Source: a bacterium
GTDB taxonomy: Bacteria > J088 > JAWLBW01
Direction of reading: 5' to 3'
Assembly: GCA_041690355.1 (NCBI GenBank)
Contig: JAWLHK010000020.1
Location: 1 to 64,000, forward strand
Length of the DNA stretch: 64,000 nucleotides
This document shows, in pieces, positions 3,880-55,799 of the stretch. Numbering within the stretch: position 1 is the first letter of the stretch; every line of letters starts with the position of its first letter. The position numbers and the translations under genes are program-made. The notes below the pieces were generated by a model. The model was not told the origin of the DNA, did not search any database, and worked only from the letters and a program-made list of their open reading frames with translations.

Positions 3880-4716
3880 CTACTCACTACTGCTGACAGG
3901 ATCGGGAAAAGCCGCCCTTAACTCGGCCTGGATGACTCGGCGCGAACTTACTGTAGCCTCACAGATATCGACACCTTTGCACCCGATAACTTCAGCCTCG
4001 GTGAGGAGAATGTCTATTACCAGAACGCCAGTGCTGGTAGGCCCCGTAGGAGGAAGCGTAAACGTAAGAATCCCATCTGAATAGAAGAGGTCTATGTCAT
4101 AGTTACTTGTCGACGCTTTAAATATCGGGGTCGCTTGCAGGTCGCCGTCCTTGTAAAAAGACGCGTACGCTTCCCCGACTTCCTCATCATCTGGACTTAG
4201 TTGAATGGCAACTTCTTCGTTCCACCGGAGCACGGCTTCGCCGGCTAGATTTGCCGAACGCGGTACTATCATATCGCGGATAACGACCTCCGCCCCCACC
4301 TCACCATCATCGATCTTGACAATTCCGTTGGTGCTCCCCGTTGGTAACTCCTCTAGTTCGCGCTGATAAAAGGGAAATCCGCAAGTCCCGCCTCGCCCGA
4401 ACATCGAATTCGTACCAGATAGTTCGAGCCCGTTGAAAGTCACCCTCGTTTCCGACGGCAAGGCGAAGCATTCGGCTGGATCAGCCCCGACTGTTACCTG
4501 GATGATGTGTGGGTAACCAGGAGTAGAATTTGGCATAAGCGCGACGGTAATGACCGAGTCCTGAAGCGCAGCAAGAGTTTTTACATCCGTAGCGTCAGAA
4601 CAGCCGACTTTGCATAAAAACACAAACCAGAGGCTACTCCGAACCATCTTTGGTAAACCCCTCAACTTCTTCATGGAGGATTGCTCGCTCACGACTCTCC
4701 AGTTTTCCGCTTCCAT
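3880..4716 (-). CDS. Hypothetical exported protein / possible lipoprotein, low GC
   Basis: 278-aa ORF, visibly more AT-rich than flanks; hydrophobic stretch ending in VGC (alternative start 4647). Confidence 0.6.
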   Translation of the reverse strand: MEAENWRVVSEQSSMKKLRGLPKMVRSSLWFVFLCKVGCSDATDVKTLAALQDSVITVALMPNSTPGYPHIIQVTVGADPAECFALPSETRVTFNGLELSGTNSMFGRGGTCGFPFYQRELEELPTGSTNGIVKIDDGEVGAEVVIRDMIVPRSANLAGEAVLRWNEEVAIQLSPDDEEVGEAYASFYKDGDLQATPIFKASTSNYDIDLFYSDGILTFTLPPTGPTSTGVLVIDILLTEAEVIGCKGVDICEATVSSRRVIQAELRAAFPDPVSSSE

Positions 4717-5324: not shown

Positions 5325-5674
5325 AGTCGGATAAGCTGTATCTCGTTCACATCGCAGAAAGTATCCGACGAGTTGAGATATTCACCGCCGAAGGCGAGAA
5401 GGCGTTTTTTGCTGATATCCGAACGCAAGACGCCGTGCTTCGCAACCTTCAGGTGCTGAGCGAATCTACGAAGCGGTTGTCACCCGAAGTCACCGCTCGA
5501 TTTCCGCACATTGACTGGAAAGGGATTGCGGGCTTCCGCAACGTCCTGGTGCATGACTACCTCGGACTTCGCCTTGATAGGGTGTGGGAAGTCATCCGCA
5601 ACGAGATACCACCACTCAAGGCCGTGATCGACGAGCTCCTCGCCGAGCTGGGCGTCTCTCTGGATAACAAGTAG
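5321..5674 (+). CDS. HEPN/HepT-like (DUF86) RNase toxin
   Basis: QDAVLRNL, W..IAGFRNVLVHDY (Rx4H HEPN motif); GTGA overlap with MNT. Confidence 0.93.
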   Translation: MKSDKLYLVHIAESIRRVEIFTAEGEKAFFADIRTQDAVLRNLQVLSESTKRLSPEVTARFPHIDWKGIAGFRNVLVHDYLGLRLDRVWEVIRNEIPPLKAVIDELLAELGVSLDNK

Positions 5675-7377: not shown

Positions 7378-8217
7378 ATGCGCATCGGAGCCCATGAGAG
7401 TATCGCCGGCGGGGTGCACGAGGCTCTGCTTCGTGCCGAGCGGGATCGTTGCGAAGCGATACAGATTTTCAGCAAGAACGGAAGCCAGTGGCGCGCGAAG
7501 CCGCTTCCGCAGGACGAGATCGCGGCTTTCCGGCGCGAGAGCGAGCGCCTGGGCCTCCTGATCCTCGTCCACACGAGTTACCTCATCAACCTCGGCGGCG
7601 CAGGCGAGGTGCTCGCGAAGAGCATCCCCGCGTTCGGTATCGAGATGGAGCGCTGCGAGCAACTCGGCATTCCGTTTCTCGTGCTCCATCCCGGGGCGCA
7701 TCTGGGGGCGGGCGAAGCGGATTGCCTGCCGCGGATCGCCGGTCACCTTCGCGCGGCGATCGATGGAACCCGCGGGTACGGCGTGCGCATCCTGCTCGAG
7801 AACACGGCAGGGCAGGGGACCACGGTGGGCTATCGCTTCGAGCACCTGCGGACGCTGCTCGATGCCATCGGGCGGCCGGAGCGCACGGGTGTCTGTTTCG
7901 ATACGCAGCACGCGTTTGCCGCCGGTTACGATCTGCGCACGGCAGCTGCCTGTGCCGCGACGATGGACGAGTTCGACAGAATCGTCGGCCTTGAGCATCT
8001 TCATGCCTTCCACCTCAACGATTCGCTGAAGGGGATCGGGAGCCGCGTGGACCGCCATGCGCGCATCGGGAGTGGAGCGTTGGGGACCGAAGCGTTCCGC
8101 GCGCTGTTCGCGGATGCGCGTTTCCGCGACACGCCGGGAATTCTCGAGGTTCCGCCCGGACCGGACAAGGAGTATCCTTTCCGCGACCAGATTGCCGCAG
8201 TCAGGCGGCTTGCTTGA
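7378..8217 (+). CDS. nfo: Endonuclease IV
   Basis: MRIGAHESIAGG, H.SYLINL, HPG, LLENTAGQG, CFDTQHAF, HLNDS and DRHA motifs. Confidence 0.95.
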   Translation: MRIGAHESIAGGVHEALLRAERDRCEAIQIFSKNGSQWRAKPLPQDEIAAFRRESERLGLLILVHTSYLINLGGAGEVLAKSIPAFGIEMERCEQLGIPFLVLHPGAHLGAGEADCLPRIAGHLRAAIDGTRGYGVRILLENTAGQGTTVGYRFEHLRTLLDAIGRPERTGVCFDTQHAFAAGYDLRTAAACAATMDEFDRIVGLEHLHAFHLNDSLKGIGSRVDRHARIGSGALGTEAFRALFADARFRDTPGILEVPPGPDKEYPFRDQIAAVRRLA

Positions 8218-8222
8218 GGGCG

Positions 8223-8278
8223 AAGTACCAAGTACCAAGTACCAAGTACCAAGTACCAAGTACCAAGTACCAAGCACC
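8223..8278. repeat. Heptamer tandem array (AAGTACC)x7 + AAGCACC
   Basis: Directly visible 5 bp after the nfo stop. Confidence 0.97.
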
Positions 8279-8369
8279 AAGAGCGCTGAGCGCTGAGCAG
8301 CAAGAGCTGAAACAAGAGCCGGGGACTCCGTCTGGGACATTTCCGCGTGGAGACCAAAGCAAGAACATT

Positions 8370-8754
8370 CCACGCGGAGGCGCGGAGTCGCGGAGAGGAA
8401 AGGACGCGGAAAGAGCGTTCGTTTCCTTTTCTCAAGGTGCGGGAGGAGCGACGCTCGTGGCCCAGCGCCTCCGCGTGGGAGAGGTCCTTCAGAGGTGATG
8501 TTACTGAACACGGCCTGCACGTGGCTCTGGCGCTCCACCGGCAGCGATGCAAGGTCTCGAAGGGAGCTCTGCTCGCCGACGCTCGCGGGAAGGGCAAGAA
8601 AAAAGAAAGAAGACTCACCGCTACCCAGGGCCCTGCCCTGGGCGATTGGCCTGCGCCCCTTCAGGGCGCTATGGAATCGGGCGGTCGCCCAGGTCCGTTC
8701 TTCCTGAAAAGAAAAGGTACTAGTTTCTCTCCGCGTCTCCGCGCCTCCGCGTGG
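8370..8754. repeat. 28-bp inverted repeat pair built of CGCGGAGN octamers (8370..8397 / 8727..8754)
   Basis: ccacgcggaggcgcggagtcgcggagag matches the reverse complement of 8727..8754 with 1 mismatch. Confidence 0.9.
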
Positions 8755-8771
8755 GAGAGGTCCTTCAGAGG
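8465..8771. repeat. 31-bp direct repeat (8465..8495 / 8741..8771)
   Basis: gcgcctccgcgtgggagaggtccttcagagg occurs twice. Confidence 0.92.
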
Positions 8772-8889
8772 CGATGCCGATGATCCTGGTCGGCACGCGC
8801 GCTGGCCTTCGACAGGCTCAGGGCGAACGGGAATCAAGTGACGCAAGCATCGAGCAGAAAGGTGGGGAATCCGGTACTTGCCGATAACC

Positions 8890-9088
8890 CGTCACTCGTC
8901 ACTCCGGAAAAGCGCCAAGCGCCGAGCACTGAGCGCCAATCAACAAGGCCGTGGTGATCTTCGTCCTTGCCGTAAACTCGTCACTCGTCACGGGGAAAGC
9001 GCCAAGCGCCGAGCACTGAGCGCCAATCAACAAGGCCGTGGCGATCTTCGTCCTTGCCGTAAACTCGTAACTCGTCACTCGTCACTCA
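8890..9088. repeat. ~87-bp tandem duplication with nested CTCGTCA and AGCGCCR heptamers
   Basis: 8909..8981 equals 8996..9068 with 1 mismatch; interspersed CTCGTCA units run up to the methyltransferase stop. Confidence 0.92.
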
Positions 9089-10078
9089 TGTTTTCATCGT
9101 CGTCGAGGGTTCTGCCTCGATCGGCAGCGTGAGCACGCGCGGGGGCGGCGGCCGGCCCATGCGGATGCGCACGGCCGGCGGCGAGGCACGGTGGTAGACG
9201 ATCGTCTCGCGATCCAGTTCTGCCCGCAGGACCCGCAGGACTTCGGCGGCCGACGTCAGCGTAGGTGCGCGCAGGAGAAGCAGATCGGCGAGCATGTTGT
9301 GGGCCAGGCGGCGCTGGCGCTCTTCGGCGTCGGACCGGCGCGGACCCGGATAGCGCATGGTGTGGAATCCGCGGAGCCACGCTTCGATCGCCGGCAGCGA
9401 GAACCGGCCGGCGAGGCGGCGCATCCAGCGCACCGGCCGGCGATCGGGAAGCTCGCCGAGCGGAAAGGCGATCGCGATGTCGCCGCCGACGCGCACGACG
9501 CGGCGGGCCTCGTCGAAAACCCCTTGGGGATCGGCCGTCGTCGCGAGCGTACCCACGAGCAGCAGCGCGTCGGCCCAGCCGGTGGCCAGGGGGAGGCGCC
9601 GCGGATTCGCCTGCGCGTAGCGCACGCCGGGCAGGTCGCCGAGAAGATCGCGGCAGATCTCAATGCGCTCGTCGGGTTCGAACAGGACCAGTTCGCGCGT
9701 GTAGCGGGCCAGCCACTCGGCGTGCCGGCCGCCGAGCGCGCCCAGGATGACGACCCGCTGCCCGGCAAGCTGCTCGGGCAGCCACCCGGTCAAACGGCGC
9801 AGCTCTTCGCGCGCGATGCGGGTGCCGCGGTAGGAGTCGAGCAGGTAGAGGCCGTAGCGCCGCAGCGGCCCGGCATCGAGGCCGGGCGGCGGGGCCTGGA
9901 AGCGCAGAATGCCGCCGCGGCGCGGGATGAAGTGGCCGCGCTCGCAGGCGGCGCCCCGCTCGCCCGAGGCGCGCGAGACGGCCTCGTGCAGGTTGGCGTG
10001 GCAGTGCGGGCAGAGAAAGATCTGCGTGTCGTCGCTGCGATGGATGTGGCGGATGCGGTCGGTCATGGGCGATTCCAC
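9086..10078 (-). CDS. Class I SAM-methyltransferase-like protein with N-terminal Zn-ribbon (Trm112-like)
   Basis: CPHC...CERGH..P...GILRF N-terminus; degenerate SAM motif ILGALGGR; LPL...D and RRVVRVGG. Confidence 0.7.
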   Translation of the reverse strand: MESPMTDRIRHIHRSDDTQIFLCPHCHANLHEAVSRASGERGAACERGHFIPRRGGILRFQAPPPGLDAGPLRRYGLYLLDSYRGTRIAREELRRLTGWLPEQLAGQRVVILGALGGRHAEWLARYTRELVLFEPDERIEICRDLLGDLPGVRYAQANPRRLPLATGWADALLLVGTLATTADPQGVFDEARRVVRVGGDIAIAFPLGELPDRRPVRWMRRLAGRFSLPAIEAWLRGFHTMRYPGPRRSDAEERQRRLAHNMLADLLLLRAPTLTSAAEVLRVLRAELDRETIVYHRASPPAVRIRMGRPPPPRVLTLPIEAEPSTTMKT

Positions 10079-31706: not shown

Positions 31707-31741
31707 AAAAGGATTCACTTTGGGTCGAATTCCCGGCCCAA

Positions 31742-31781
31742 CTCCTTGCTCCCGAGAGGGGGCTGTTGCATCCGAAAGGAG
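31742..31781 (+). promoter_or_regulatory. Putative S6:S18 autoregulatory mRNA leader
   Basis: CTCCTT can pair with the SD AAGGAG; inner hairpin; unpaired CCG before the SD; directly upstream of rpsF. Confidence 0.65.
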
Positions 31782-31791
31782 AACCATCGAC

Positions 31792-32304
31792 ATGCGACGT
31801 TACGAAACTGTTTTTATTGCGGCCGATCAGACGCCCGACGACCAGGTGCGCGAGATTGCCGAGCGCAGCCGCGCCGTGGTCGAGCGCACCGGCGGCAAGC
31901 CGATCCGCACCGACTTCTGGGGTCGCCGGACGCTGTCCTACGAGATCCAGAAATCGCGCCGCGGCAACTACGTCCTGCTGGTCTACGCCGGCGGCGGCGA
32001 ATCGGTCGCCGAGCTCGAGCGCACGCTGCAGATCAACGAATCGATCATCCGTTTTCACACCATCAAGGTTGAAGACCAGGTCAATCCCGAAGCCATCGGG
32101 CCCGAAGAGTCCAAGCCGGCGCCGGCCGACATCTTCGCCGAATCCGCCGAGCGCGGCGATCGTGACCGCGATCGCGACCGTGACCGCGATCGTGACCGCG
32201 ACCGTGATCGCGACCGTGATCGCGACCGCGACCGCGCCCCGCGCGAAGAAGAAGAAGGCGAAGAGGAGTCCGAAGAATCGGCCGACGAAGGGAAGGGGGA
32301 ATAA
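31792..32304 (+). CDS. rpsF: 30S ribosomal protein S6 with (DR)n/acidic tail
   Basis: MRRYETVFI, WGRR.LSYEI.K and ELER.L.INE.IIR motifs. Confidence 0.96.
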   Translation: MRRYETVFIAADQTPDDQVREIAERSRAVVERTGGKPIRTDFWGRRTLSYEIQKSRRGNYVLLVYAGGGESVAELERTLQINESIIRFHTIKVEDQVNPEAIGPEESKPAPADIFAESAERGDRDRDRDRDRDRDRDRDRDRDRDRDRAPREEEEGEEESEESADEGKGE

Positions 32305-46933: not shown

Positions 46934-48604
46934 ATGAGCGACCAGAAAATCATCTTCTCCATGTCGAAGGTCTCGAAGGCCTATAAGGACAAGAAGGTCA
47001 TCGAAGACATCAGCCTTTCGTTCTTCTACGGCGCCAAGATCGGCGTACTTGGGTTGAACGGGGCGGGTAAATCGACGCTGCTGCGGATCATTGCCGGCGA
47101 AGACAAGCAGTACATGGGCGAGGTGAACGCCAGCAAAGGGGTGAGCTTCGGGATGCTGGCCCAGGAGCCGCAGCTCGACGAGTCCCGCACGGTCAAGCAA
47201 ATCGTGCGCGAAGGCGCCGCCGAAGTCGCCGAGCTGCTCGAGAAGTACGAGGCCGTCAGCGCGAAGTTCGCCGATCCCGATGCGGACTACGACAAACTCA
47301 TGGAAGAGCAGGGCAAGCTGCAGGACCGCATCGAGCAGCTGAATGGCTGGGATCTCGACAGCCGCCTCGAGCAGGCCATGGACGCGCTGCGTTGCCCCGA
47401 CGGCGACACGCCGATCAAGGTCTGCTCGGGCGGCGAGCGCCGCCGGGTCGCCCTGTGCCGCCTGCTGCTGCAGAAGCCCGACGTCCTGCTCCTCGACGAG
47501 CCGACGAACCATCTCGACGCCGAGTCGGTGGCCTGGCTCGAGAAGTTTCTCCAGGACTACGAGGGGACGGTCATCGCGGTCACGCACGATCGCTACTTTC
47601 TCGACAACGTCGCCGGCTGGATCCTCGAGCTCGACCGCGGCCGCGGTATTCCCTTCAAGGGCAACTATTCCGGCTGGCTCGAACAGAAGTCTGCGCGCCT
47701 GGCCGTCGAGGAGAAGCAGGAGTCGAAGCGGCAGAAGACGCTCGAACGCGAACTCGAGTGGATTCGCACGAATCCCAAGGGGCGCACGGTCAAGAGCAAG
47801 GCGCGCATCACTGCTTATGAGGAACTGCTGTCGGAACAGGCCGACAAGCGGCGCGAGGATCTGGAAATCTACATCCCGCCCGGCCCGCGTCTCGGCGACA
47901 ACGTGATTGCCTTCGACGACGTCGCGAAGTCGTTCGGCGATCGGCTGCTGTATGAGAATCTGAGTTTCCGCCTCCCGCCCGGCGGCATCGTCGGTATCAT
48001 CGGTCCGAACGGCGCCGGTAAGTCGACCCTTTTCCGCATGATCATCGGGCAGGAGAAGCCCGACGCCGGCACGATCTCCATCGGCGAAACGGTCAAGCTC
48101 GGCTACGTCGATCAGAATCGGCCGCTCGACCCCAAGAAGCGCATCTGGGAAGAAATCGGTGACGGCCAGGATACGGTCCGGCTCGGCAAGCAGGAAGTGA
48201 ACACCCGTTCCTACGTCGCGCGGTTCAACTTCACCGGCAGCGACCAGCAGAAGCTGACCACCGAGGTCTCGGGGGGCGAACGCAACCGCGTGCATCTCGC
48301 CAAGATGCTCAAGGAGGGGGCGAACGTGCTGCTGCTCGACGAACCGAGCAACGACCTCGACGTGAACACCCTGCGCGCGCTCGAAGAAGCGCTGTTGAAC
48401 TTCGCGGGCTGCGCCGTGGTCATCTCGCACGATCGCTGGTTTCTCGACCGTATCGCCACGCACATTCTCGCCTTCGAGGGTGACAGCGAGGTGGTCTGGT
48501 TCGAGGGCAACTATCAGGACTACGAAGCGGACCGCCGCCGCCGCCTCGGCGACAGGGCCGACCGGCCGCACCGCATCCAGTACAAGAAGCTCACGCGGAA
48601 TTGA
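46934..48604 (+). CDS. ettA: Energy-dependent translational throttle ABC-F ATPase
   Basis: SFFYGAKIGVLGLNGAGKST, two ABC domains, LERELEWIR and IPPGPRLG motifs. Confidence 0.96.
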   Translation: MSDQKIIFSMSKVSKAYKDKKVIEDISLSFFYGAKIGVLGLNGAGKSTLLRIIAGEDKQYMGEVNASKGVSFGMLAQEPQLDESRTVKQIVREGAAEVAELLEKYEAVSAKFADPDADYDKLMEEQGKLQDRIEQLNGWDLDSRLEQAMDALRCPDGDTPIKVCSGGERRRVALCRLLLQKPDVLLLDEPTNHLDAESVAWLEKFLQDYEGTVIAVTHDRYFLDNVAGWILELDRGRGIPFKGNYSGWLEQKSARLAVEEKQESKRQKTLERELEWIRTNPKGRTVKSKARITAYEELLSEQADKRREDLEIYIPPGPRLGDNVIAFDDVAKSFGDRLLYENLSFRLPPGGIVGIIGPNGAGKSTLFRMIIGQEKPDAGTISIGETVKLGYVDQNRPLDPKKRIWEEIGDGQDTVRLGKQEVNTRSYVARFNFTGSDQQKLTTEVSGGERNRVHLAKMLKEGANVLLLDEPSNDLDVNTLRALEEALLNFAGCAVVISHDRWFLDRIATHILAFEGDSEVVWFEGNYQDYEADRRRRLGDRADRPHRIQYKKLTRN

Positions 48605-49173
48605 CGATTTACGATTGACGATTGACGATTGACCGGCAAGAGCAGGAGTCGATTCTGCTCCAGTCGGTGCCCTCAGCCGACATCGGCTCGTCTTCGCCCG
48701 TGAGTGTCAGGGAGAGTTTTCGTTGCGGCGGGTCGTTCGGATGGAGGAGACCAGAATCGCGAAGAGCTGGTCGGCCTCTTCCTGGATGCCGCTCAGCCGT
48801 TCGTGAAGCTTTTCCAGATGCGGCCGGTCGCGCAGCAGTTCGAGCCAGTACCGGCATTCGTCGGCTTCCTCTTCGGCAATCTTGAGCTTCGCTATGAAAT
48901 CGGCCCTGGACCGTCCAAGGCAGGCGGCCCGGTAGTTTGCGCCGACCGATGTAGAGCATCGGATAAGCTGGTGCCCGATGACGCGCGTTGCTGCGCCCTC
49001 AGGAAGCGATTCCACAAAATCGATGACGGAATTGGCGAAGCGGCGCATCCGGCGCTTCATGGCGTCAGGGTTCATCCCTGCTACGCTAGTATAGTCGCGG
49101 CTTACCCGTCAACGAAAAAGCACTTATTTCCGATTTGAAAGTAATCGTCATTCGTCAATCGTAAATTGTCAAT
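48600..49173. mobile_element. Candidate 574-bp element: four-helix-bundle gene between 31-bp heptameric inverted repeats
   Basis: 48600..48630 matches the reverse complement of 49143..49173 at 29/31 positions; mobility is inferred only. Confidence 0.5.
48707..49075 (-). CDS. Four-helix-bundle protein (23S rRNA IVS protein / bAvd-like family)
   Basis: QLIRCSTSVGANYRAAC..RS.ADFIAKL.IAEEEADEC.YWLELL signature. Confidence 0.92.
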   Translation of the reverse strand: MNPDAMKRRMRRFANSVIDFVESLPEGAATRVIGHQLIRCSTSVGANYRAACLGRSRADFIAKLKIAEEEADECRYWLELLRDRPHLEKLHERLSGIQEEADQLFAILVSSIRTTRRNENSP

Positions 49174-49177
49174 CAGC

Positions 49178-49212
49178 AAAAAACCCAACTGCACAAGTTG
49201 CACAGTTGGGTT
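49178..49212 (-). terminator. Terminator after tRNA-Leu(GAG)
   Basis: aacccaactg...cagttgggtt hairpin with a T run on the minus strand. Confidence 0.8.
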
Positions 49213-49218
49213 CAAGTA

Positions 49219-49303
49219 TGGTGCCGAAGGCGGGATTCGAACCCGCACGGGTTTCCCCGCCACCCCCTCAAGATGGTGTGTCTGCCAGTTCCACCACTTC
49301 GGC
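49219..49303 (-). tRNA. tRNA-Leu(GAG)
   Basis: GCCGAAG acceptor, CCATC-TTGAGGG-GGTGG anticodon arm, long variable arm, CCA end; follows secG. Confidence 0.96.
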
Positions 49304-49329
49304 AAAGGGTCTGAGTCTTTTCGCGGACG

Positions 49330-49686
49330 TTACTGCGTTTCGTCGGTCAGCGGCTGGGCCACCGCTTCGTCGGCCGGCGCCGTCACCGGCGAACCCGGCT
49401 CTTCGGGCGCGACCTCGGACGGAACCGGTGCGCCCCCCATGATGCTCGTGGCGCCGCGGCCCGACATGTAGGCCAGCGAGAGCGACGTGAGGCCGAAGAT
49501 GATGGCCGCGGCCGTCGTCACCTTGCCCATGAAGCCGCCGGCGCCGGAGCTGCCGAACACCGTCGAGCTCGAACCGCCGCCGCCGAAGGCAAGCCCCATG
49601 CCGCCGCCCTTGCCGGGCTGCAGCAGCACCATCACTACGAGAACGATGGCGTCGATGACGTGAATGACTTTGAGAAACGTTTCCAT
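49330..49686 (-). CDS. secG: Preprotein translocase subunit SecG
   Basis: VLLQPGKG...FGGG...VFGS.G..FM.K.T pattern; tpiA-secG-tRNA-Leu synteny. Confidence 0.93.
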   Translation of the reverse strand: METFLKVIHVIDAIVLVVMVLLQPGKGGGMGLAFGGGGSSSTVFGSSGAGGFMGKVTTAAAIIFGLTSLSLAYMSGRGATSIMGGAPVPSEVAPEEPGSPVTAPADEAVAQPLTDETQ

Positions 49687-49764
49687 GAAATCAGCGAATC
49701 CTGTTTCTCTCCGGGGGTCCCTGAGAAAGGCTCGAAGGGAATGCAGAAGAGTGAAACGATTATC

Positions 49765-50532
49765 TTACCGGAAGTGCAGAAGCTTTGCAAATTTTCCGGC
49801 ATCGAGGCTGGCGCCCCCCACCAGAGCCCCGTCGACGTCCGGCTGCGCGAGCAGGATCGCGACGTTCTCCGGCGTGACCGAGCCGCCGTAGAGAATGCGT
49901 ACCGCCGCCAGCGTTTCGGCGCCGAACCGCAGTGCAAGGTGCGTGCGGATGAACGAGTGCACCTCCTGCGCCTGATCCGGGGTCGCCGTCTCGCCGGTGC
50001 CGATGGCCCAGACCGGTTCGTAGGCGAGCACGAGACGCGCTACGGCGGCCGCTTCAAGATCGGCGAGGGCGCCGTCGAGCTGGCGCGCGATCACGTCGAG
50101 TGTCTGATTGGATTTGCGGTCCTCGAGCCGCTCGCCGATGCAGACCACGGCCTGGAGGTCGGCCGCCAGCGCGGCTTTCAGCCGCTGATTCACGGTCGCG
50201 TCAGTCTCGCCGAAGTACTGGCGGCGCTCCGAGTGCCCGATGAGGGCCCCCGCGGCGCCGGCTTCCGTCAGCATGGCCGCCGATAACTCGCCGGTATAGG
50301 CGCCGTGGGTCGCCCAGTGCACGTTCTGTCCGTACACACGCACGCCGAGCGTCTGTCCCTCGGCCGCCGCATGCAGGGCGGTGGCCGGCGGGGCGATGCC
50401 GGCCTCGACATCGGCAGGCATTCCGGCAGAGCCGAGTTCGCGCGCCAGATCGGCGAAGAAAGACCGGGCCTCAGCCGCGGTCTTGTGCATTTTCCAGTTG
50501 CCGATGATGAGCGGCGTGCGGGATTCGTTCAT
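49765..50532 (-). CDS. tpiA: Triosephosphate isomerase
   Basis: [28 protein letters not shown] and VGGASL motifs. Confidence 0.98.
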
Positions 50533-55367: not shown

Positions 55368-55799
55368 ATGAACCGTAAAGAGTTGGTCGCCGAGGTTGCC
55401 AAGCGCACCGAAGTGGCGATGAGCCAGATCAACCACACGCTTGATCACGTTCTCGATGCCATCTCCGAAGCGCTGACGGGCGGCCGCGACGTGGCGCTCA
55501 AGGGTTTCGGCACGTTCTCGGTCTCGAAGCGCGCTGCTCGCGTTGGCCGCAATCCCCAGACCGGCGCCACCATCAAGATCGGCGCCAGCAAGAGCCCGAA
55601 GTTCAAGCCCTCGTCGCAGCTGAAGCAGGCCGTCAAGGCCGGCAAGGTTGCCAAGAAGGCCGCGCCGGCCAAGAAGGCTTCGAAGCCTGCCGCCAAGAAG
55701 GCTGCACCGAAGAAGGCCGCTGCCAAGCCGGCCGCCAAGAAGGTTGCCAAGAAGGCCCCCGCCAAGAAGGCGCCGGCCAAGAAGGCTGCCAAGAAGTAA
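55368..55799 (+). CDS. HU-family DNA-binding protein with PAKK-rich tail
   Basis: MNRKEL, GFGTF, R.GRNPQTG, PKFKP and (P/A)AKK repeats. Confidence 0.95.
   Translation: MNRKELVAEVAKRTEVAMSQINHTLDHVLDAISEALTGGRDVALKGFGTFSVSKRAARVGRNPQTGATIKIGASKSPKFKPSSQLKQAVKAGKVAKKAAPAKKASKPAAKKAAPKKAAAKPAAKKVAKKAPAKKAPAKKAAKK

Follow-up and report, generated by a model that had tools for sequence, protein, structure and literature searches.

The 64,000-nucleotide stretch analysed here (positions 1 to 64,000 of contig JAWLHK010000020.1, assembly GCA_041690355.1; hereafter the window) carries, between an ettA-like gene and a tRNA-Leu gene, a small open reading frame (ORF) for a four-helix-bundle protein enclosed by two mirror-image arrays of heptamers. 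Analysis of this cassette and of its homologues pointed to a gene-plus-repeat unit related to the intervening sequences (IVS) of 23S rRNA genes. The gene and its two arms form one unit, and a survey of homologous loci supported this packaging as family-wide. The conserved object is an array of five cores on each side of the gene, written in a dialect specific to each element, and not a particular stem. The element of the window was filed as an IVS-like cassette outside rRNA, and its parts and neighbours are arranged as follows.

46940..48604, plus strand: ettA-like ABC-F gene, convergent with the cassette.
48600..48630, strand-neutral: left arm, a period-7 array, which is the 3′ arm relative to the minus-strand gene.
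48602..48604, plus strand: stop codon TGA of the ettA-like gene, within the first unit of the left arm.
48631..48706, minus strand: trailer of 76 nt from the stop of the four-helix gene to the 3′ arm, GC 0.645.
48707..49075, minus strand: four-helix-bundle gene, 122 aa, PF05635 / TIGR02436 (profile matches and fold model).
49076..49142, minus strand: leader of 67 nt, AT-rich (GC 0.463), containing TATACT.
49143..49173, strand-neutral: right arm, a period-7 array, which is the 5′ arm relative to the gene.
49178..49212, minus strand: hairpin and T-run, read as the tRNA-Leu terminator (inverted-repeat search and reading of the sequence).
49219..49303, minus strand: tRNA-Leu (anticodon GAG), co-oriented with the cassette and located upstream of it.

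An inverted-repeat search of positions 48400-49400 recovered two arms of 31 nt each, complementary at 29/31 positions (94%) and 512 nt apart, in agreement with the initial annotation of this DNA. Tandem Repeats Finder (TRF) placed the left array at 48600-48633 (ATTGACG, 4.9 copies, 92% matches) and the right one at 49143-49174 (4.6 copies, 76% matches). With up to three mismatches allowed, the 31-mer was found at two sites only in the window, namely the two arms (0 and 2 mismatches), and did not occur in 100 dinucleotide-preserving shuffles. The motif GATTGACGATT, at up to one mismatch, occurred seven times in the window, every time within the arms, where 0.77 occurrences were expected. Written in the sense of the gene, the left arm reads AATCGTC AATCGTC AATCGTA AATCGTC AAT, that is, five A-A-T cores at a spacing of 7 nt, and the right arm reads ATTGACA ATTTACG ATTGACG AATGACG ATT, again with five cores. 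The variant unit (spacer TAC, ATTTACG type) occupies the matching position in both arms, as previously noticed. The G+C content of the arms is 32-35%, against 65.8% for the window, and the G+C content at third codon positions (GC3) of the four-helix gene is 0.732, against 0.859 ± 0.019 for 10 neighbouring genes, an atypical value that gives this gene a foreign look. In the predicted RNA fold of the cassette, the arms were paired in both the minimum free energy and the centroid structures (z = -3.04). As in an IVS element, the repeats that bound the ORF are terminal, inverted and capable of pairing into a long stem.

Both edges of the cassette are tight. The left arm supplies the stop codon of the ettA-like gene, as the initial annotation had stated; the encoded protein (C-terminus ...KKLTRN) has a normal length, its closest EttA match shows 80% identity, and the TRN ending is found in 10/120 listed EttA proteins, the window's included. 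On the other side, 4 nt separate the right arm from the T-run of a hairpin with a 15+15-nt stem (49182-49212), so that the abutment on a tRNA-Leu terminator also held up on repeat search and reading of the sequence. This hairpin is absent from the list produced by a consensus terminator scan of 48300-49800, and the same scan returned no terminator for the four-helix gene. As for the proposed -10-like box, the sequence TATACT is present in the leader (AGTATA on the plus strand, 49088-49093), but a promoter scan of 48300-49800 gave no sigma-70-like site.

The remainder of the window offered no accessory machinery. None of its 48 ORFs matched a transposase, an integrase or a reverse transcriptase in a Pfam scan, and reading of the sequence at the arm edges revealed no direct duplication of the flanks, in line with the initial annotation; the hallmarks of an insertion sequence or of a miniature inverted-repeat transposable element were not found. 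An Rfam scan of the window gave three tRNAs and no rRNA, and the cassette does not lie inside a 23S rRNA gene. PADLOC returned no match on the window. The cassette is present as a single copy, since tblastn and a profile search of the six-frame ORFs detected no further family member in the window. No long direct repeat was found within 48400-49400, the sole region searched for repeats of the template/variable type.

To place the cassette in its family, 80 loci were collected from GTDB species genomes by a profile scan with an alignment of 25 family members, and tblastn on these loci and the window yielded 82 homologous genes. Being the top-scoring loci for a single query (45-57% identity), these 80 sample one subfamily; the array detectors and ORF calls were custom-made. 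Whether inverted period-7 arrays flank the homologous genes was a check put forward in the initial annotation, and in general they do. TRF at a low threshold found period-7 arrays on the 5′ side of 69, on the 3′ side of 76 and on both sides of 65 of the 82 genes, the median values being 4.4 copies and 31 nt, and both-side arrays were seen in 15 of the 16 named phyla. Control ORFs of the same loci had both-side arrays in 7/332 cases. A stricter detector, applied to the 78 genes with enough flanking sequence, returned an upstream array for 50, a downstream array for 41 and both for 32; by this detector, arrays covered 13.1% of the 150-nt flanks and 0.47% of the remaining locus sequence, an enrichment of about 28-fold. 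The complementarity score between the two arms of one element reached at least 14 in 60/75 elements, compared with 0/75 after shuffling and 85/441 for arms paired between loci. The arms enclose interiors of 363-575 nt. Between the 5′ arm and the ATG there are 0-143 nt, often fewer than 30, and the 3′ arm begins near the stop codon or ahead of it.

Such arrays were visible by eye in 12/12 loci on plasmids of isolates, with an arm score of at least 14 in 8/12. The carriers include Planktothrix, Gloeocapsa, Chlorohelix, Nostoc, Euhalothece, Chondrinema and Monoglobus. Metagenome assembly does not account for the pattern, since isolate plasmids have arrays too.

Alignment of the units after rotation to a common phase revealed the consensus G-A-(T>A)-T-(G/T)-N-N, that is, G-A-W-T followed by three variable bases. 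Among 75 upstream (5′) arrays, the core G was present in 68, the A in 73 and the T in 72, figures that the best-fit rotation somewhat inflates. The G-A-W-T strand is placed 5′ of the interior with ratios of 66:5 and 80:3; this arrangement is symmetric under reverse complement and therefore gives no clue to gene orientation. Counts of cores per run peak sharply at five, in 35/77 of the 5′ arms and 38/77 of the 3′ arms. Where units are mixed, as in 39 elements, the two arms have unit types in common and agree at 0.745 of spacer positions; between elements the figure is 0.522. In these 39 elements, unit order shows no general mirroring from one arm to the other (0.745 against 0.736 after shuffling of the order, p = 0.51), so the earlier argument that a shared variant unit shows the arms to be copied from each other does not generalise. 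The perfectly mirrored order of the window belongs to the high end of the range and is weak evidence for arm copying.

Five Acidobacteriota species (loci L017, L022, L029, L038 and L070) carry the cassette at one syntenic site, where 3-4 nt separate the 5′ arm from a tRNA-SeC gene and 0-4 nt lie between the 3′ arm and the ATG of the next gene. Coding identity among these copies descends to about two thirds. The G and the A are invariant in all five 5′ cores and the core positions are kept in the five 3′ cores, while the spacers vary and the leader cannot be aligned; this contrast suggests purifying selection on the cores of the Acidobacteriota cassettes. Two of the five copies, L022 and L070, have weakly complementary arms (scores of 9 and 11). 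From this weak complementarity and from the unmirrored order of units, it follows that a perfect stem is not what is conserved. At this tRNA-SeC site (about 5840-6460 in L017), the translation start of the conserved next gene would fall at the foot of the stem.

The type of heptamer follows the lineage of the protein. Mapped on a tree of the 80 proteins, the heptamer class requires 24 changes, against 35.4 ± 1.7 for shuffled labels (0/1000 as low), with the qualification that this tree is poorly resolved and that kinship alone can cluster heptamer labels. The protein of the window groups with those of L012 and L044, from Armatimonadota and Acidobacteriota (Shimodaira-Hasegawa-like approximate likelihood ratio support of 85), and all three use GATTGAC/GATTTAC units; a clade of GATTTTN users, starred on the tree, brings together Cyanobacteriota, Acidobacteriota and Myxococcota. 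A Planctomycetota contig (L058) carries two paralogues 1.9 kb apart, one with GATTTCG and the other with AAATGAN units, each type being matched in its own arms. Since paralogues in one genome use different heptamers, a universal host factor is unlikely to be the reader of the arrays. Taken with the count of five cores, the match between heptamer and tree makes the cassette's own protein the obvious candidate reader of its arms.

More distant, plasmid-borne relatives at 30-45% identity are accompanied by GGTCGGA, CAGTKAC/TAACTGG, TAACTGA or GATGAAG units. The GATGAAG arrays belong to the Chlorohelix plasmid relative and resemble the heptamer of the Coxiella IVS. On the Chondrinema (L092) and Euhalothece (L093) plasmids, TAACTGA, TAACTGG and TCACTGG units flank distant members of the family, up to about 12 in a row.

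The 122-aa protein is the sole cargo of the cassette, as first described. It matched PF05635 with 61 bits (cut-off 33.8) and TIGR02436 with 84.3 bits (cut-off 24); PF05635 was the only Pfam family above its cut-off, and no match to an HUH/Y1 transposase was obtained. A structure model (mean predicted local distance difference test score, pLDDT, of 95.4) contains four helices at residues 3-22, 28-52, 57-82 and 85-120. A Foldseek search with this model returned 2RLD as the closest structure, with a template modelling (TM) score of up to 0.81, followed by 2GSC and 4DWL. Avd and the Avd chains of a diversity-generating retroelement (DGR) ribonucleoprotein were found at TM scores of 0.66-0.73 (4DWL; 8UB7, 8UBE, 8UBB, 8UB8). 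Sequence identity is 34% to the stand-alone 2RLD protein and 20% to Avd. The kinship with IVS ORFs and Avd that the initial annotation had put forward was confirmed by both sequence and fold. The 2RLD entry comprises five chains, and the matching chains of 2GSC and 4DWL extend to chain E; the title of the Xcc0516 paper, as it appears in reference lists, speaks of 'five four-helix bundles'.

The ORF is intact and all 17 invariant residues of the family are present. The family is very large, with 18,232 cluster representatives at E ≤ 0.001, and a phage collection gave two unannotated matches to it. The closest protein among 5.8 billion is 58% identical; no near relative of the source genome is therefore found among those searched. 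Structures of PF05635/TIGR02436 members have been solved, but to our knowledge their role is understood only within diversity-generating retroelements. Seven-residue periodicity in protein tails was considered as a proxy for abutting arrays, but it was seen in 1/269 family proteins and was uninformative.

Examination of the insertion contexts revealed that the cassettes sit close to other genes, with a median gap of 82 nt between the end of the same-strand upstream ORF and the ATG. In the window, in L079 and in Gloeocapsa, the arrays supply the stop codon of the neighbour. Insertion-like contexts were recognised in 9/12 plasmid loci, at seven junctions: drmD/pglX, DUF1156/HEPN, helicase/methylase, RND adaptor/permease, hsdS/hsdR, fabH/hydrolase and upstream of cas1. 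A further cassette lies between cheA and cheB, and one cassette gene between cmr3 and cmr2 had already been remarked upon (PMC3936711). The junction between DUF1156 and a Swt1-type HEPN gene carries a cassette in both a cyanobacterial plasmid (L082, 1960-2400) and a Chloroflexota plasmid (L085, 530-1200). The four-helix proteins of these two are 71% identical and the HEPN neighbours just 50%, which could reflect separate insertions at one type of site or a slower clock. The strand bias relative to neighbours was not distinctive, at 59/77 and 56/76 against 325/474 control pairs.

Inverted pairs of arrays without a gene, with loops of 4-184 nt, are present in the same loci. In L079, two such hairpins (3984-4140 and 5460-5559) are translated in frame within a 755-aa CheA hybrid, one in the linker between the Hpt and dimerisation domains and the other in the linker between the CheW and receiver domains, as checked by domain assignment. 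The palindromic elements found inside Rickettsia genes are a parallel to these in-frame hairpins. Counting arrays in long stop-free frames (43/99) was unreliable in GC-rich DNA and was not used. A Nostoc flagelliforme plasmid (L095, 830-1000) carries, downstream of the four-helix gene, an array-bearing stretch about 170 nt long that contains small hairpins, and this stretch recurs at 80-91% identity on eight other Nostoc/Tolypothrix plasmid records that have no annotated four-helix gene. In the drmD/pglX defence operon of Planktothrix plasmids (L081, 2240-3030; also L083 and L084), the gene lies between two complete hairpins, each composed of an array, a loop and an inverted array. The three Planktothrix strains have a nearly identical gene and are set apart almost only by whole repeat units: their arrays show length differences of +7, +21 and about +10 nt, along with exchanges of entire units. 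All three plasmids carry the cassette, and no empty allele was found among them. The Acidobacteriota and Planktothrix cases show long residence of what is at most a candidate mobile element.

Among known systems, the 23S rRNA IVS are the nearest. Leptospira provides, next to Coxiella burnetii, an example of a 23S rRNA IVS that bears an ORF. The ORF of the Coxiella IVS, S23p, belongs to the same protein family and is likewise enclosed by terminal inverted repeats. This IVS forms a 28-bp terminal stem, from which its start codon is separated by two to three tandem GACAGAT heptamers; the site of RNase III cleavage is the start of the first of these repeats (PMC4990558). GACAGAT is GATGACA in another phase. 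Two differences stand out: the cassette of the window is flanked by a protein gene on one side and a tRNA gene on the other, outside any rRNA gene, and its arms consist wholly of five heptamers. In the literature searched, as far as its text was available, the IVS is treated as an oddity of rRNA and not as one site of a general cassette. Beyond the Coxiella IVS, no paper linking the PF05635 family to flanking heptamer arrays was found in a search that left subscription journals and the supplements of the repeat papers outside.

A second likeness is to the hairpin doublets of repetitive extragenic palindromes (REP) known as REPINs and to their REP-associated tyrosine transposases (RAYT). In both cases a gene lies between inverted copies of a short repeat. 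Gene-less hairpin doublets, which REPIN-RAYT systems scatter through spacers, are seen here at the loci of relatives, where solo arrays resemble the local cassette only modestly more than other cassettes; in the window itself the heptamer unit is confined to the arms, with no scattered doublets. Lineage-specific repeat types and mostly vertical inheritance with some lateral transfer are further traits that the cassettes appear to share with REPIN-RAYT systems (PMC3116915). Unlike a RAYT, however, the cargo is a 120-aa four-helix bundle and not an HUH/Y1 transposase, and unlike a REP the repeat is a tandem heptamer array and not a palindrome of 16-20 nt. With Avd the family shares its fold and, in its solved members, a pentameric assembly, and Avd is part of an RNA-protein complex. 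In contrast to Avd systems, no reverse transcriptase is present among the 48 ORFs of the window, and identity to Avd is about 20%. Around the avd gene of phage BPP-1, the sole DGR prototype checked, there is neither a period-7 array nor an inverted repeat that encloses the gene. TRAP forms a ring of 11 identical subunits that recognises as many short conserved triplets as it has subunits, with spacers of unconstrained sequence between them. It serves as a working analogy only, given its unrelated fold, its 11 subunits and its triplets.

Several heptamer arrays of similar shape have been reported, and the STRR repeats of Calothrix are a further unexplained example. In Xanthomonas, 186 arrays of GGGAATC have conserved G-A-x-T positions, contain mostly four units, include 70 convergent pairs and lie on average 28 nt from the upstream ORF (PMC4692102). 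Nostoc has heptamer arrays GGGGA(T/C)T to which the same text, in its available parts, assigns no reader (PMC4692102). In Geobacter metallireducens, 15/16 sites, arranged in eight pairs, consist of five tandem heptanucleotides MTYCTGA and were ascribed to an 'unidentified global regulator' (PMC2700814); MTYCTGA is G-A-M-T in another phase. Arrays of TAACTGA in Beggiatoaceae, Cyanobacteria and Bacteroidetes were judged to have spread horizontally with no evident mechanism. A term search of PMC4679880 and PMC2700814, as far as available, and the covered parts of PMC4692102 gave no mention of the four-helix-bundle family. The shape of the units and the two plasmid loci with TAACTGA-type arrays (L092 and L093) suggest that this family may be linked to the reported arrays.

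Our best reading, held tentatively and with chances that fall just short of even, is an IVS-type cassette whose arms pair in RNA, which persists as a passenger and whose arms are read by its own pentamer. It builds on the observed anatomy, on the conservation of the core and of the core count, on the match between heptamer and lineage and on tight insertion at gene ends and operon junctions; from these we infer steps of binding, cutting and movement. Read-through transcription, here from tRNA-Leu, would allow the arms to pair into a stem of about 31 bp, which RNase III may cut as in the Coxiella IVS; the cassette RNA would thus be separated from the host RNA, making the insertion tolerable. 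The protein, presumably a homopentamer like its solved relatives, might read the five cores of an unpaired arm, one per subunit, in the way that the TRAP ring reads spaced triplets. In this way each protein lineage would be bound to a repeat dialect of its own, and the reading would also control the formation of the stem or the upkeep of the cassette. The unit would then persist as a selfish or domesticated passenger whose gene and arms travel together between phyla and which leaves behind or seeds hairpins without a gene, with arrays gaining or losing whole units. Several observations weigh against this reading. Transcription of the upstream arm can only be presumed here, and a terminator hairpin separates tRNA-Leu from it. 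Unit order is not mirrored in general, and the weak stems of old copies favour binding sites over stems, which makes the RNase III step weaker than the rest. The wider plasmid set reaches an arm score of 14 in 8/12 loci only, and the 80 loci represent a single subfamily. Arrays standing alone match the cassette of their own locus at 6/7 positions or more in 25/98 comparisons, and other cassettes in 162/970, a modest excess. The long synteny among the five Acidobacteriota and the three Planktothrix plasmids speaks against frequent movement.

Because complementarity is weak in old copies, two other explanations stay alive, both of which we regard as improbable. The arms could be the terminal inverted binding sites of a DNA-level mobile system of the REPIN-RAYT type, RNA pairing being incidental; the pentamer, with or without host enzymes, would act on single-stranded or hairpin DNA so that both the unit with its gene and the hairpins without one are copied or moved. 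Ends recognised by one protein should be symmetric, and such symmetry is seen in the placement of the same G-A-W-T strand 5′ of the interior in both arms. The persistence of the cores despite poor complementarity (L022, L070), the gene-less inverted pairs, including the two in frame in CheA linkers, and the 170-nt Nostoc segment on plasmid records lacking the gene would also be accommodated, and each RAYT likewise has its own flanking type of REP (PMC3116915). However, no catalytic fold is known for the protein, and Avd, to which it is related, acts as a cofactor that binds RNA and is no recombinase. Neither a target duplication nor an empty site nor near-identical copies at several sites were found in the window sequence, the Planktothrix plasmids and the Nostoc records, and the long Acidobacteriota synteny and the modest likeness between a cassette and the other arrays of its locus also argue against it. 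The same low probability applies to a resident gene with self-contained control, useful to the cell and neither selfish nor mobile, in which the arrays would be mRNA or DNA operators for autoregulation by the pentamer. Five conserved cores per arm close to the start codon, the 5′ arm often lying less than 30 nt from the ATG, would suit operators, as would long vertical inheritance beside tRNA-SeC, an intact ORF with its 17 invariant residues and the very large size of the family. Autoregulation leaves unexplained, on the other hand, the gene-less hairpins, those in frame in CheA, the copies in rRNA helices and the scattered insertion sites inside unrelated operons, and it fits poorly with a protein tree that mixes phyla and with a GC3 atypical for the source genome.

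Two further explanations are contradicted by the data. Slippage-prone microsatellites or G-quadruplex repeats that happen to lie in AT-rich spacers, unrelated to the protein, retain a very small probability. Indeed, an earlier study described heptamer arrays of Xanthomonas and Nostoc as simple repeats present in excess and tested whether they form quadruplexes (PMC4692102), and the Planktothrix arrays differ by whole units (+7 and +21 nt). But coincidence is opposed by the enrichment of arrays in the flanks, by both-side arrays in 65/82 genes against 7/332 controls, by conserved cores whose count peaks at five and by the lack of G-runs in most unit types (GATTGAC, GATTTTG, GAATGCG). Hardly any credence is given, for this window, to a DGR remnant, that is, an Avd gene left behind after loss of the reverse transcriptase and of the template and variable repeats: the fold does resemble Avd (TM 0.66-0.73), but the window has neither a reverse transcriptase among its 48 ORFs nor a PADLOC match, the protein is far closer to 2RLD than to Avd, and the one prototype avd checked, that of BPP-1, is free of period-7 arrays and of an enclosing inverted repeat.

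A bolder proposal than the passenger cassette, which we consider unlikely on balance though quite conceivable, is that PF05635 pentamers are the missing trans-acting partners of the GGGAATC, TAACTGA and GGGGATT arrays and of those of the Geobacter 'global regulator', forming a REPIN-RAYT-like system built on a non-enzymatic ring that binds RNA or single-stranded DNA. Each subunit would read one heptamer core on a single strand, five units making one site, and the boxed-in gene would be the autonomous member of a population of hairpins. These hairpins might colonise spacers and the junctions of operons as well as the helices of rRNA and even linkers inside coding genes, and protein and repeat dialect would co-evolve and cross between phyla together.

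The architecture of the cassette joins three loose ends: the ORFs of IVS, the stand-alone four-helix genes and the heptamer arrays, for which earlier papers appeal to quadruplexes, slippage or 'unidentified' regulators. If one pentamer proves to bind one five-unit arm with a specificity set by the heptamer, this would define a new mode of recognition between protein and repeat, and the cassettes would represent a new type of element, selfish or domesticated. Annotation would be affected as well, since arrays supply stop codons and read-through into arrays gives false C-terminal tails. Where cassettes lie in defence, chemotaxis or efflux operons, their gene has been mistaken for a component of the system.

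Other repeats were observed in the window. The initial annotation had likened the cassette arms to heptamer arrays elsewhere in this DNA; most of these use other units (AAGTACC, GAGCGCT, AAGCGCC), and only the (GAGTGAC)n runs near 8890-9087 belong to the same G-A-x-T class. Arrays fill an 870-nt spacer (8218-9088) between an nfo-like gene (stop at 8217) and a convergent methyltransferase gene (9086..10078, minus strand), which contains (AAGTACC)x8.4, (GAGCGCT)x2.6 and an 87-nt tandem repeat (x2.3) that includes (CGTCACT)2 and (AAGCGCC)-type units. The minus-strand (GAGTGAC)-type run, which shares the G-A-x-T/GAC class of the cassette arms, supplies the stop codon of the methyltransferase gene. 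The six ORFs of the array-rich region 8001-9132 gave no meaningful Pfam match. The same spacer holds inverted period-8 arrays at 8373-8395 (CGCGGAGG x2.9) and 8728-8752 (TCTCCGCG x3.1), 332 nt apart, with no gene recognised between them. Their unit resembles the TCTCCGTS paired sites of Geobacter metallireducens (PMC2700814), and two direct copies of a segment of about 30 nt (CTCCGCGTGGGAGAGGTCCTTCAGAGG...) lie near 8470 and 8745.

Tandem repeats also occur within two coding sequences. The gene of an HU-type DNA-binding protein (55368-55799) has a C-terminal tail made from imperfect AAG/GCC-rich (Lys/Ala) tandem repeats, for which TRF gave periods of 15-54 at 55650-55796. The gene of ribosomal protein S6 (31720-32304) is long, encoding 194 aa with the Pfam domain at residues 27-116, and its end contains a 12/18/30-nt tandem repeat (GACCGTGACCGC...) at 32156-32236.

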